A stretch of DNA of 64,000 bases from Shigella phage ESh28. Both the position numbers and the translations under genes were made by a program. The notes under the pieces are model-generated. The model saw nothing but the letters and a program-made list of their open reading frames with translations, did not search any database and was not told where the DNA came from. The stretch lies in the sequence record ON528738; one strand, written 5' to 3'. This document shows positions 21,965 through 49,486 of the stretch, piece after piece; position 1 is the stretch's first letter, and the number at the start of each line of letters is the position of its first letter.

Positions 21965-22005
21965 AAATAATAAATACCCTTATCTATTTAAGGTAAGGGT
22001 TTATT

Positions 22006-22479
22006 ATGTTATTGACTGGCAAATTATATAAAGAAGAAAAACAGAAATTTTATGATGCACAAAACGGTAAATGCTTAATTTGCCAACGAGAACTAAATCC
22101 TGATGTTCAAGCTAATCACCTCGACCATGACCATGAATTAAATGGACCAAAAGCAGGAAAGGTACGTGGATTGCTTTGTAATCTCTGCAATGCCGCAGAA
22201 GGTCAAATGAAACATAAATTTAATCGTTCTGGCTTAAAGGGGCAAGGTGTTGATTATCTTGAATGGTTAGAAAATTTACTTACTTATTTAAAATCCGATT
22301 ACACCCAAAATAATATTCACCCTAACTTTGTTGGAGATAAATCAAAGGAATTTTCTCGTTTAGGAAAAGAGGAAATGATGGCCGAGATGCTTCAAAGAGG
22401 ATTTGAATATAATGAATCTGACACCAAAACACAATTAATAGCTTCATTTAAGAAGCAGCTTAGAAAGAGTTTAAAATGA
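22006..22479 (+). CDS. 49: endonuclease VII (Holliday junction resolvase)
   Basis: 157 aa; zinc-binding CLICQ ... HLDHDHELNGPKAGKVRGLLCNLCN motif as in T4 gp49. Confidence 0.9.
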   Translation: MLLTGKLYKEEKQKFYDAQNGKCLICQRELNPDVQANHLDHDHELNGPKAGKVRGLLCNLCNAAEGQMKHKFNRSGLKGQGVDYLEWLENLLTYLKSDYTQNNIHPNFVGDKSKEFSRLGKEEMMAEMLQRGFEYNESDTKTQLIASFKKQLRKSLK

Positions 22480-45870: not shown

Positions 45871-46503
45871 ATGATTTATTATATGCACAAAAATCCACCG
45901 TTTAAATACGGTAAATTTCCTGATGCACAATGTTATAACATAACGCCTGATGAAAATAACCGTGGATATCTTATTGGCACAATTTTTGTAATTGTTAAAG
46001 ATAACGAAATCGTTGCCTGGGCAGATTTTAAAGGTACAACATATGATGTTAATCCGGTGCCTTTCACATATTACAATTTAATGGATTTGGCATACGATTA
46101 TAATTGGTTTAATCATGACACGTTGGCTCATATTGAAGGTGTAGGATTTGACATCTCTTATTCTAGCTACTCATTGTGTCCTATGAGTCGGGCTCATAAA
46201 GAACCTGAATATTTTTCATTTAGGAAACGTGTAAACTTTAAACGCAACACAGAGTATGTCGGTGGAATCTTTGTTAAAGATAATCGAATTACTCGCATTA
46301 TTTATCCTTTGGGCTGTGGTCAAAAAGATATTGATGTTGATTTAGACTTTACTGAAAACATCATTAATCATATTGCTTCTGTGTATTTTGGTATCGATCA
46401 CAAAATTGTAATATGTGGATATGAATTACCGTTTGAAGAACAACCTAAAGTAAAAGTTTCTATTGACGATCAAATTTTTAATGCTTTTATGAATAAAGGT
46501 TAA
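45871..46503 (+). CDS. hypothetical protein (61.2-position), shares C-terminal tail with next ORF
   Basis: 210 aa; C terminus ...SIDDQIFNAFMNKG. Confidence 0.5.
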   Translation: MIYYMHKNPPFKYGKFPDAQCYNITPDENNRGYLIGTIFVIVKDNEIVAWADFKGTTYDVNPVPFTYYNLMDLAYDYNWFNHDTLAHIEGVGFDISYSSYSLCPMSRAHKEPEYFSFRKRVNFKRNTEYVGGIFVKDNRITRIIYPLGCGQKDIDVDLDFTENIINHIASVYFGIDHKIVICGYELPFEEQPKVKVSIDDQIFNAFMNKG

Positions 46504-46507
46504 TATG
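46459..46507 (+). repeat. direct repeat copy 1 (about 49 bp)
   Basis: TCTATTGACGATCAAATTTTTAATGCTTTTATGAATAAAGGTTAATATG, repeated at 46817 with 3 mismatches. Confidence 0.75.
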
Positions 46508-46861
46508 TATAGTTCTGAATTTTCATATTTAAAAATGGAAAAAATTTCATACGATTTTATAGATGAAAAGGTTTATTACAGTTTCCATGAACCACGTTTT
46601 AATAGTGAGGTTGGGTTTATTGTAGTAAAAGACAATTTCATTTTAAAGATATATTCGGCATTAAAGGATTTTCACTACGAAAATATTAACCTAAAATTTG
46701 ATAAAGAAAACGTTCGTAATTGTGCAGTAACAATTACAGGAAATAAAGGCACATGTGTTATGCTATCTGATGAAATTAATGATTTGCTAAATGATGCCGA
46801 AAAGGTTGCTATTCCATCTATTGATGACCAAATTTTTAATGCTTTTATGAATAGAGGTTAA
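46505..46861 (+). CDS. hypothetical protein flanked by direct repeats
   Basis: 118 aa; C terminus ...SIDDQIFNAFMNRG encoded by repeat copy 2. Confidence 0.45.
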   Translation: MYSSEFSYLKMEKISYDFIDEKVYYSFHEPRFNSEVGFIVVKDNFILKIYSALKDFHYENINLKFDKENVRNCAVTITGNKGTCVMLSDEINDLLNDAEKVAIPSIDDQIFNAFMNRG

Positions 46862-47029: not shown

Positions 47030-48058
47030 ATGTCATCAATACCTTGGATTGATAATGAGTTTGCGTATCGTGCATTAGCTCATTTACCTAAATTCACACA
47101 AGTAAATAATAGTTCAACTTTTAAATTGCGGTTTAGATGCCCTGTTTGTGGAGATTCAAAAACCGACCAGAATAAAGCTCGTGGATGGTATTATGGTGAT
47201 AATAATGAAGGAAATATTCATTGTTATAACTGTAACTATCATGCACCAATCGGAATATATTTAAAGGAGTTTGAACCTGATTTATATCGTGAGTATATCT
47301 TTGAAATAAGAAAAGAAAAAGGTAAAAGTCGTCCAATAGAAAAACCTAAAGAACTTCCTAAACAACCTGAGAAGAAAATAATTAAATCTCTTCCGTCATG
47401 CGTTAGATTAGATAAACTGGCGGAAGACCATCCAATTATAAAATATGTAAAAGCTCGTTGTATTCCAAAGGATAAATGGAAATTTCTTTGGTTTACAACC
47501 GAATGGCCTAAATTAGTTAATAGCATAGCACCGGGAACATACAAAAAGGAAATTTCTGAGCCTCGTCTTGTTATTCCAATTTATAATGCTAACGGAAAAG
47601 CCGAGTCTTTTCAAGGACGCGCATTAAAGAAAGATGCTCCTCAAAAATATATCACCATCAAAGCTTATCCTGAGGCAACAAAAATTTACGGTGTTGAACG
47701 AGTTAAAGATGGTGATGTATATGTTCTAGAAGGACCTATAGATTCGCTTTTTATTGAAAATGGTATAGCTATTACGGGTGGTCAATTAGACCTAGAAGTT
47801 GTTCCATTTAAAGATAGACGAGTGTGGGTTTTAGATAATGAACCTCGTCATCCTGACACTATCAAGCGAATGACTAAATTAGTTGATGCAGGAGAAAGGG
47901 TTATGTTTTGGGATAAATCTCCCTGGAAATCAAAAGATGTTAATGATATGATTAGAAAGGAAGGTGCAACCCCTGAACAAATTATGGAATATATGAAAAA
48001 TAATATTGCCCAGGGGTTGATGGCTAAAATGCGGCTATCTAAATATGCTAAGATTTAA
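47030..48058 (+). CDS. 61: DNA primase gp61
   Basis: 342 aa; N-terminal zinc ribbon CPVCGDS ... CYNCNYH; matches T4 gp61. Confidence 0.9.
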   Translation: MSSIPWIDNEFAYRALAHLPKFTQVNNSSTFKLRFRCPVCGDSKTDQNKARGWYYGDNNEGNIHCYNCNYHAPIGIYLKEFEPDLYREYIFEIRKEKGKSRPIEKPKELPKQPEKKIIKSLPSCVRLDKLAEDHPIIKYVKARCIPKDKWKFLWFTTEWPKLVNSIAPGTYKKEISEPRLVIPIYNANGKAESFQGRALKKDAPQKYITIKAYPEATKIYGVERVKDGDVYVLEGPIDSLFIENGIAITGGQLDLEVVPFKDRRVWVLDNEPRHPDTIKRMTKLVDAGERVMFWDKSPWKSKDVNDMIRKEGATPEQIMEYMKNNIAQGLMAKMRLSKYAKI

Positions 48059-48255
48059 ATCAACCCAACTAAAGCAAATGCTAAATCTACGAATGTATCA
48101 AGAGTAACTATTGGAATATTAATACCATGTGCAATTGCAACAGGTGATAGAATAAAGTTCCAGAGTAAAATTCCTACCATAGCAGAAATAGTAAAAGCTA
48201 TACGTTTTTTATTACCTTTTATGGCATTAACAAGTGCCATTAATTTTTGTACCAT
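48055..48255 (-). CDS. small two-helix membrane protein, antisense to the early genes
   Basis: 66 aa hydrophobic ORF on minus strand in the 61-56 gap; strong minus-strand SD TAAGGAGG four nt before ATG; AATAAATA late-promoter-like box upstream. Confidence 0.5.
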   Translation of the reverse strand: MVQKLMALVNAIKGNKKRIAFTISAMVGILLWNFILSPVAIAHGINIPIVTLDTFVDLAFALVGLI

Positions 48256-48328
48256 ATGTCCTCCTTATTGCTTTATATATTTATTGTATAATTAATCTAC
48301 TAACCCATGAATTGAAAGGAAAAATAAC

Positions 48329-48847
48329 ATGCCACATTTCAACGAATGTAGTCAACTGATCGAAGGTGCTGATAAAGCTCAAAATGAATATTGGGATATT
48401 CTCGGTGATGAAAAAGACCCGCTGCAGGTAATGCTTGACATGCAGAAATCTCTACAGATTCGTTTAGCTAAAGATAAACCTGAATATAACCGTCATCCTG
48501 ATGATTTGGCTACTGCAGGTGAAGTTGTTGATTGGCTGCGTAATCAGAAAGATTACATTGATGATGAATTCCGTGAACTTCTGACTTCTCTTGGTGGTAT
48601 GAGCAATGGTGAAAAAGATGCATCTGCTGTATGGAAGCCTTGGAAGTCGCAGCATGGTGAACGCCGTGAAACTCTAATTACTGATTTGTCTCCTCAAGAC
48701 CAGTTGGAAATTAAATTCGAAATGATTGATATTCTTCATTTCGTTCTGAACATGTTCCAAGGTCTTGGTCTTACGGCTGAAGAAATCTTTAAACTTTATT
48801 ATCTGAAAAATGCTGAAAACTTCGCTCGTCAAGATCGAGGTTATTAA
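48329..48847 (+). CDS. 56: dCTPase/dUTPase gp56 (MazG-like)
   Basis: 172 aa; ...EEIFKLYYLKNAENFARQDRGY; matches T4 gp56. Confidence 0.8.
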   Translation: MPHFNECSQLIEGADKAQNEYWDILGDEKDPLQVMLDMQKSLQIRLAKDKPEYNRHPDDLATAGEVVDWLRNQKDYIDDEFRELLTSLGGMSNGEKDASAVWKPWKSQHGERRETLITDLSPQDQLEIKFEMIDILHFVLNMFQGLGLTAEEIFKLYYLKNAENFARQDRGY

Positions 48848-48891
48848 TGGCTCGTTTAAATAAACGACGACTTAAAAGCCGTGAGAATTAT

Positions 48892-48899
48892 TATAAATA
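48892..48899 (+). promoter_or_regulatory. late promoter box TATAAATA for soc
   Basis: Exact TATAAATA about 30 nt upstream of soc ATG. Confidence 0.6.
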
Positions 48900-48929
48900 A
48901 TCATGTAATTTAAATAAAAGGAGAATTAC

Positions 48930-49175
48930 ATGGCTAGTACTCGCGGTTATGTTAATATCAAAACATTTGAGCAGAAATTAGATGGAAATAAGAAAATTGA
49001 AGGAAAGGAAATTTCAGTAGCTTTCCCTCTTTATTCTGACGTTCACAAAATTTCTGGCGCTCATTACCAGACATTCCCTTCAGAAAAAGCAGCATATACT
49101 ACTGTATATGAAGAAAATCAACGTGCTGCATGGATTGCTGCAAACGAAGATTTGTGGAAAGTAACTGGTGGTTAA
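48930..49175 (+). CDS. soc: small outer capsid protein Soc
   Basis: 81 aa; MASTRGYVNIKTFEQKLDGNKKIEGKEISVAFPLYSDVHKISGAHYQTF matches T4 Soc. Confidence 0.9.
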   Translation: MASTRGYVNIKTFEQKLDGNKKIEGKEISVAFPLYSDVHKISGAHYQTFPSEKAAYTTVYEENQRAAWIAANEDLWKVTGG

Positions 49176-49182
49176 TAATTCA

Positions 49183-49208
49183 AGGACTCCTTCGGGAGTC
49201 CTTTTTTC
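49183..49208 (+). terminator. rho-independent terminator
   Basis: GGACTCC-TTCG-GGAGTCC hairpin plus T tract. Confidence 0.7.
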
Positions 49209-49217
49209 ATTTAAACG

Positions 49218-49247
49218 GTTTACTTTCCAAAATGAGTATGGTATAAT
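49218..49247 (+). promoter_or_regulatory. T4-type early promoter
   Basis: GTTTAC ... TATGGTATAAT. Confidence 0.6.
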
Positions 49248-49273
49248 AGATTTATCTTATAGAGGAGAGCACT

Positions 49274-49486
49274 ATGTTAAATCGCTGGATTAAACCAAAT
49301 GAAGACCTCCAGAAGGTTCTTGATAAAGCTATCTCTGATAAATGGGGTATGAAAAGCTGGGATTGTGATGTCGTTACGCATTCATTCATGATGCATGCAG
49401 ATGGTTCAGTCGAGTTCAATGCTGAAATGCGATACACTGACTGGGGTGGATTTCAAAGAGTCGAATTTCAAAGAGGCTTTTTATAA
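49274..49486 (+). CDS. hypothetical small protein
   Basis: Tracked ORF with GAGGAGAG SD. Confidence 0.45.
   Translation: MLNRWIKPNEDLQKVLDKAISDKWGMKSWDCDVVTHSFMMHADGSVEFNAEMRYTDWGGFQRVEFQRGFL

Follow-up and report, generated by a model that had tools for sequence, protein, structure and literature searches.

A conserved minus-strand gene for a small, predicted membrane protein between the primase and dCTPase genes of T-even phages

Introduction

T4-like phages carry a small gene that was listed as coding for a hypothetical protein as early as the RB69 and RB32 genomes (older annotation names are RB32ORF030w, "similar to RB69ORF029w", and AR1_033) and that forms PHROG 2024, a family whose function is unassigned there. 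An earlier note on the DNA analysed here implied that the gene was novel, an impression that did not survive comparison with databases, since hundreds of genomes already list the product as a hypothetical protein. The T4 copy lies at NC_000866 17738..17938, within a 309-bp stretch left unannotated by the reference, and the T2 record LC348380 also carries the ORF without annotation. The T4 reference is the base of most T4 transcriptomic, proteomic, and CRISPRi screens, and because its annotation lacks the ORF, those T4 datasets never reported on the gene. Our literature search found nothing on RB69ORF029w or RB32ORF030w, on T4 Ribo-seq or unannotated genes, or on antisense late promoters near dam and gene 61.

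Described small membrane proteins with which such a product can be compared include the class II holins and pinholins, which are hydrophobic, about 70 aa long, and have two transmembrane domains, and also small single-pass membrane regulators, such as T4 Ac, E. coli AcrZ, and proteins of the MgrB type. The regulators are 50 to 70 aa long, have one transmembrane helix, and are presumed to act by association with a larger membrane protein. T4 Ac is mentioned in PMC13250531.

The transcription programme of T4 is well described. Early and middle transcripts have a single polarity, whereas late transcripts can come from either strand (PMC2988020). The late box covers positions −13 to −6, with little conservation of the T at −13 across T4-like phages (PMC1524935); 32 of the 50 listed T4 late promoters have a perfect box and 9 have A at −13, the commonest accepted late-promoter variant (PMC2988020). 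A T4 dRNA-seq preprint lists 150 phage start sites, 22 of which are antisense (bioRxiv 10.1101/2024.04.04.588121). Here we examine the interval between genes 61 and 56 of Shigella phage ESh28 (record ON528738) within a stretch of 64,000 nucleotides, called the window throughout, and compare it with the corresponding interval of other T4-like phages.

Results

A minus-strand ORF occupies the gap between genes 61 and 56

Plus-strand ORFs of at least 70 aa cover 87% of the window, in agreement with the earlier observation that nearly all genes here are on the plus strand. The 270-bp gap between gene 61 and gene 56 (the former ending at 48058, the latter starting at 48329) holds the 66-aa ATG ORF that the earlier note had described on the minus strand, and the near-perfect Shine–Dalgarno (SD) sequence reported with it is also present (Table 1). 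It is the sole minus-strand ORF of the window that lies in a gap and combines an SD with a plausible protein sequence. The 3′ ends of the ORF and of gene 61 overlap by 4 nt in convergent orientation, such that the 2 stop codons overlap tail-to-tail within the palindrome ATTTAAAT. When the 300-nt region was shuffled 5000 times with its dinucleotides preserved, 56 of the shuffles (1.1%) contained, in whichever frame, an ATG ORF of 66 aa or more. Judged from these features and from the comparisons below, this minus-strand ORF is a real gene that is widely conserved among T-even phages.

Table 1. Features of the interval between genes 61 and 56 and of its surroundings (window coordinates).
Feature	Position	Strand	Remarks
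DNA primase gene 61	47030..48058	+	Named from the annotation of related records; DnaG Pfam match sub-threshold
Long hairpin, candidate 3′ structure of the minus-strand transcript	47966..48019	−	Within the 3′ end of gene 61
CDS, 66-aa protein	48055..48255	−	PHROG 2024 / RB69ORF029w family
Hydrophobic C-terminal helix (predicted), residues 45–66	48058–48123		Conserved D/E53 and D57
Transmembrane helix (predicted), residues 19–42	48130–48201		Contains invariant W32-N33-F34 and P38
Basic amphipathic N-terminus (predicted), residues 1–18			
Terminator-like hairpin and T-run for gene 61 transcripts	48221..48249	+	8 bp, −8.9 kcal/mol, z = −2.8
Shine–Dalgarno sequence TAAGGAGG	48260..48267	−	4 nt upstream of the ATG; a strong SD in all lineages
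Middle-promoter-like element for gene 56	48268..48292	+	MotA box TTGCTTTA 48268–48275, 11-nt spacer, −10 TATAAT 48287–48292
Late-promoter-type box AATAAATA	48278..48285	−	22 nt upstream of the ATG; consensus TATAAATA at −13..−6
dCTPase gene 56	48329..48847	+	dUTPase_2 Pfam match
soc	from 48930		After gene 56; Pfam

The family keeps its place beside gene 61 across T4-like genera

The 66-aa protein matched PHROG 2024 over its full length (E = 6.3e-31, residues 2–66 against profile positions 1–65 of 65), and it is 100% identical to the T2 hypothetical protein AYD82629.1 / BBF63193.1. All 20 aligned members of the family match the same profile. With the window protein as query, tblastn matched 692 phage records, 686 of them at 80% coverage or more (T2 at 100% identity, T4 at 97%). 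A divergent member used as query gave 279 records, mostly additional phages of Klebsiella, Salmonella, Citrobacter, and Enterobacter; RB69 and some Escherichia phages turned up in both searches. The family is found in about 970 phage records, counted with these recurrences, always in one slot and one orientation, at identities down to about 30%. Orthologs in Mosigvirus and Gaprivervirus are 45% to 57% identical at the amino acid level and share this slot and orientation. Among 1.84 billion representative proteins, a profile search gave 7 hits (clusters), all of them ORFs of T4-like phages, with no cellular homologue. The most distant members, 3 proteins of 62 to 68 aa on divergent metagenomic T4-like contigs, matched PHROG 2024 at E = 1e-14 to 1e-21, and on the 2 contigs that are long enough the ORF again lies between primase and dCTPase on the opposite strand. 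The window protein, which shares slot, orientation, and length (62 to 68 aa) with the family, shows no difference from it and belongs to it.

Searches beyond the family gave no match for the 66-aa protein in Pfam, NCBIfam, or PADLOC, and only noise in a sequence-profile search of the PDB (E > 1); Foldseek returned family members only from BFVD and noise only from the PDB. No paralog was found at E < 1 by tblastn against the whole window, sp included. One database "homologue", protein P0090, was set aside as an artefact and not a divergent relative, because its substitutions (A→V, T→I, P→L, S→F, and H→Y throughout) fit C-to-T converted reads, as from bisulfite-type sequencing with a T4-like spike-in.

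The earlier note placed dam in this interval of T4 and remarked on its absence here, and this is correct: T4 has dam between 56 and 61, and the ESh28 window is without it. The implied substitution of the small ORF for dam must be given up, however, since T4, T2, and SG1 have both genes, and we rejected replacement because the ORF adjoins gene 61 in dam-plus phages as well as in phages with a homing endonuclease. The small ORF is accompanied by dam and an extra ORF in T2, by dam in SG1, and by a homing endonuclease in G50 and DK-13. The interval is without cargo in the window, VEc74, RB51, and AR1, and its cargo elsewhere is dam (T4), dam with an ORF of 180 to 190 aa (T2, SG1), or a homing endonuclease (G50, fPS-90, DK-13). 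It is a hot spot of variable cargo in the related loci (L002, L003, L004, L007, L020), and the endonuclease gene of G50 immediately follows the promoter and leader of gene 56. The inserts of Tequatrovirus lie between the promoter of the ORF and gene 56; in Gaprivervirus either 109 nt or a homing endonuclease gene separates the ORF from gene 61, the second arrangement being that of DK-13, whose insert is on the gene 61 side of the ORF. Across the genomes compared, the small ORF, not dam, is the constant neighbour of gene 61.

Purifying selection acts on the protein

The comparison of the 61–56 junction that the earlier note had called for showed the ORF intact in relatives, with low dN/dS and with length differences among orthologs that are all in-frame indels. 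Pairwise dN/dS within Tequatrovirus was 0.06 to 0.30; between genera dS was saturated, yet length and amino acid motifs were retained. Variable sites by codon position numbered 8/3/14 in Tequatrovirus and 43/23/55 in the full set. Because the ORF occupies a gap between plus-strand genes, an overlapping gene cannot account for this pattern. These substitution data show that an ORF of 62 to 68 aa is held under purifying selection.

The product is predicted to be embedded in the membrane

The earlier note had seen a membrane-targeted protein with 2 hydrophobic helices. Transmembrane prediction gave a single confident helix at residues 19–42, in line with membrane targeting and with the first of the 2 helices, which is a clear span, but the C-terminal helix, though hydrophobic, has 2 conserved acidic residues and would make a poor independent span. 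The best 19-residue window (residues 23–41) has a mean Kyte–Doolittle hydropathy of 2.0, and the C-terminal segment was estimated at +5 to +11 kcal/mol (a crude sum of approximate Hessa-scale values). This segment is shorter in distant members and ends in DLAFALVGLI. The AlphaFold2 model, built from the 20-sequence alignment, has a pLDDT of 76 and helices at residues 2–12, 16–42, and 52–63. Positions that are invariant or nearly so are K13, W32-N33-F34, P38, H43-G44, P48, D57, and G64. All five basic residues of the protein precede the transmembrane span, and for this reason the N-terminus should be cytoplasmic. These predictions support well a membrane-embedded product, whose C-terminal segment seems likelier to form an interfacial or re-entrant helix than to make a second span by itself. 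In the proposed topology, with which the distribution of hydropathy and charge agrees, the basic N-terminus would lie in the cytoplasm, residues 19–42 would cross the inner membrane, and the hydrophobic C-terminal helix, with its conserved acidic positions, would lie at or in the periplasmic leaflet.

A late-promoter-type box precedes the ORF in every lineage examined

In every lineage examined, ATAAATA occurs 14 to 33 nt upstream of the ATG and is followed by a strong SD, the box being placed, as a TATAAATA-type element, for a start just upstream of the SD. The late-promoter-like box pointed out in the earlier note is upheld, and its form in the window, AATAAATA, is the commonest accepted variant. 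The position of the box cannot be aligned among lineages: in that of the window it lies within the spacer of the gene 56 promoter on the opposite strand, in Mosigvirus, Gaprivervirus, and the related locus L017 it lies upstream of the MotA box of that promoter, and in dam-plus phages it lies in unrelated sequence. That the motif is retained through such sequence turnover argues for function. The base before ATAAATA is A, G, or C and in no lineage the consensus T, for which reason the promoter may be weak.

With 10 copies where 40 ± 6 would be expected, ATAAATA is under-represented four-fold in the window, and 6 of the 10 copies precede an SD and ATG. Among them are a site in front of soc, which Pfam identified, 2 in tandem before an ORF that we take to be lysozyme e, and a AATAAATA copy, the same variant as at the 66-aa ORF, upstream of an ORF starting MLLTGKLY that is presumably gene 49. 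The units of soc and of the putative lysozyme e and gene 49 resemble the 66-aa ORF in having a strong SD and an ATG within about 15 to 35 nt after a short TATAAATA-type box. They differ in that they share the strand of early transcription and are covered by early read-through RNA, whereas the 66-aa ORF is on the opposite strand, and its box begins with a base other than T in all lineages.

Upstream of the ORF, the minus strand showed no sigma-70-like promoter. Because early and middle transcription of T4 never uses this strand, the ORF should be late-only, and late, gp55-dependent expression of the 66-aa ORF is probable and well supported by the arrangement of its signals. From the position of the box, the transcript is predicted to start at about 48272, the counterpart of NC_000866 position 17722 (+), and to have a 17-nt leader. 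The divergent homologue L014 has a canonical hairpin and T-run, an intrinsic terminator by its form, directly after its stop codon, and given this terminator of its own the L014 homologue is, as far as its sequence indicates, a self-contained unit.

Plus-strand signals and RNA structures share the interval

We recognised the element upstream of gene 56 by the MotA-box consensus of T4 middle promoters (Table 1). T4 has an equivalent upstream of its gene 56 (L004 2800–2850 (−): TTGCTTA, 13 nt, TATAAT), and the element is also found in Mosigvirus, Gaprivervirus, and L017. The T4 record places oriA 22 nt inside gene 56, near this middle-promoter-like element. In the window, the minus-strand late box and the middle-promoter-like element physically overlap back to back.

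The terminator-like hairpin of the plus strand falls within codons 6–12 of the minus-strand ORF and is stronger in plus-strand RNA, where a G-U pair replaces a C-A mismatch of the minus strand. In some related records it carries a terminator annotation. The hairpin is confined to Tequatrovirus, with no counterpart in Mosigvirus or Gaprivervirus. The long hairpin within the 3′ end of gene 61 is a 14-bp imperfect inverted repeat that forms G-U pairs in minus-strand RNA only and has A-C mismatches in gene 61 mRNA. It is conserved in six lineages, and a covariation test on it gave nothing convincing. A search of Rfam returned nothing meaningful in window positions 47400–49300.

Discussion

We consider it likely that the 66-aa ORF is a genuine monocistronic late gene of T-even-type phages. 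Its slot is fixed across many genera, adjoining the primase gene upstream of the dCTPase gene and on the opposite strand, and a locus that stays fixed across many T4-like genera despite the turnover of dam and homing endonucleases argues for a real, if accessory, function. After the onset of replication, RNA polymerase with the T4-type late sigma factor gp55 (together with gp33 and the gp45 clamp) would start at about 48272 and produce a short-leader mRNA that would be translated efficiently. The gene would be among the few in an early region that should be late-only owing to their strand.

Other readings of the locus place its function in RNA or in the plus strand. A late antisense RNA could be the functional product, silencing gene 61 or read-through early transcripts, with the peptide as an incidental by-product. 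The convergence on gene 61 with its 4-nt overlap and the stable minus-strand hairpin within the 3′ end of that gene are consistent with such an RNA, as is a scan of Tequatrovirus in which no minus-strand terminator was found, so that the transcript should enter gene 61 in antisense; T4 also transcribes both strands at some sites at different times (PMC2988020). However, selection is seen at the level of the protein, with dN/dS far under 1, motifs that outlast saturated dS, and conserved SD and ATG, and the separation of the ORF from gene 61 in Gaprivervirus together with the L014 terminator after the stop codon indicates that the overlap with gene 61 is not a conserved feature, which leaves an antisense function very unlikely. 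The small size and hydrophobicity of the peptide, and an mRNA that would pair along its whole length with any early read-through RNA of gene 61, recall type I toxins, in which case convergent or antisense transcription would block the peptide early and free it late to harm the membrane. Convergent gene 61 transcription is the sole antisense source here, neither a dedicated antisense small RNA nor a matching Rfam family was found, the protein has no similarity to known toxin families in Pfam, NCBIfam, or PADLOC, and the plus-strand hairpin is not conserved beyond Tequatrovirus; we regard a toxin as very unlikely too, even slightly more so. The plus-strand signals that overlap the 5′ end of the ORF and its promoter would also suit a chance ORF in a regulatory spacer (the gene 61 terminator, the gene 56 middle promoter, and the vicinity of oriA) conserved for the plus strand only. 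This explanation is already disfavoured and hardly credible, since the 62 to 68 aa stay open down to about 30% identity while the plus-strand hairpin disappears, variation favours the third codon position at low dN/dS, and such an ORF is rare in shuffled sequence.

The earlier note guessed at a holin, an antiholin, or an exclusion factor, a proposal that also takes in pinholin-like lysis proteins. Like class II holins and pinholins, the 66-aa protein is small and hydrophobic, it is probably late, and with residues 19–42 it has the transmembrane domain, at least one, that holins have; one ortholog is labelled "Holin" in UniRef, and one distant member has a marginal match to a holin PHROG (E = 0.012 over 23 residues). 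Against this, none of the 20 members matches any holin PHROG at E ≤ 0.5, Pfam, NCBIfam, and PADLOC give no match, only one transmembrane helix is confident, and the hydrophobic C-terminus (ending VGLI) is without the highly charged, hydrophilic cytoplasmic domain typical of holins. The adjoining genes 61 and 56 serve replication and nucleotide metabolism, not lysis, and the ORF is in no lysis cassette and has no linkage to an endolysin or spanin. The UniRef names are inconsistent, the identical T2 protein being labelled "Head morphogenesis protein", and we rejected both names as evidence since they contradict each other and lack profile support. As for superinfection exclusion of the Imm or Sp kind, the protein resembles neither sp nor anything else in the window, and its expected timing does not fit, because the known T4 exclusion genes are early and the minus strand is without early transcription (PMC2988020). 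All in all, a role as a lysis or exclusion protein of these kinds appears unlikely.

For the late gene that we favour, the conserved residues offer some hint of what its product may do. The 66-aa protein has no similarity of sequence or fold to Ac, AcrZ, or MgrB-type proteins, and its presumed likeness to them is in action only, namely in binding to a larger membrane protein. Asn residues inside a membrane drive helices to associate, and on this ground we propose self-association or binding to a partner membrane protein. Together with the Pro kink and the HG turn, the invariant Asn within WNF points to helix–helix association, and we tentatively suggest, as a possibility, a small membrane-embedded modulator that works through itself or through a larger phage or host partner. 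Candidate processes would be lysis timing or lysis inhibition, envelope integrity, and membrane-bound assembly, and it would not be an autonomous holin.

A broader and more doubtful speculation is that this is an overlooked late-only T-even gene, in T4 as well, whose membrane product tunes a late envelope event, and that early transcription from gene 61 and from the gene 56 middle promoter keeps it silent until the gp55 switch. If true, the tuned event would be the timing or inhibition of lysis, the activity of an inner-membrane complex of the host, or the membrane-bound assembly of head or baseplate, and strand polarity would enforce the timing of a late-only gene.

Other observations in the window

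Four ATAAATA copies (at 1153−, 4101−, 46305−, and 59237−) have no SD and ATG after them, and these may be silent or may drive antisense late RNAs. At window positions 21969–22020 (+), a hairpin (CCCTTA...TAAGGG) after AATAAATA takes in the SD of the ORF starting MLLTGKLY, presumably gene 49; this resembles the arrangement in T4, where the ribosome-binding site is exposed by the late transcript only. Between sp and 61.1, 2 adjoining plus-strand ORFs of 210 and 118 aa (45871–46503 and 46505–46861) end almost alike (SIDDQIFNAFMNKG and SIDDQIFNAFMNRG, respectively). From their sequences they look like tandem paralogs of 61.2, of which T4 has a single copy.
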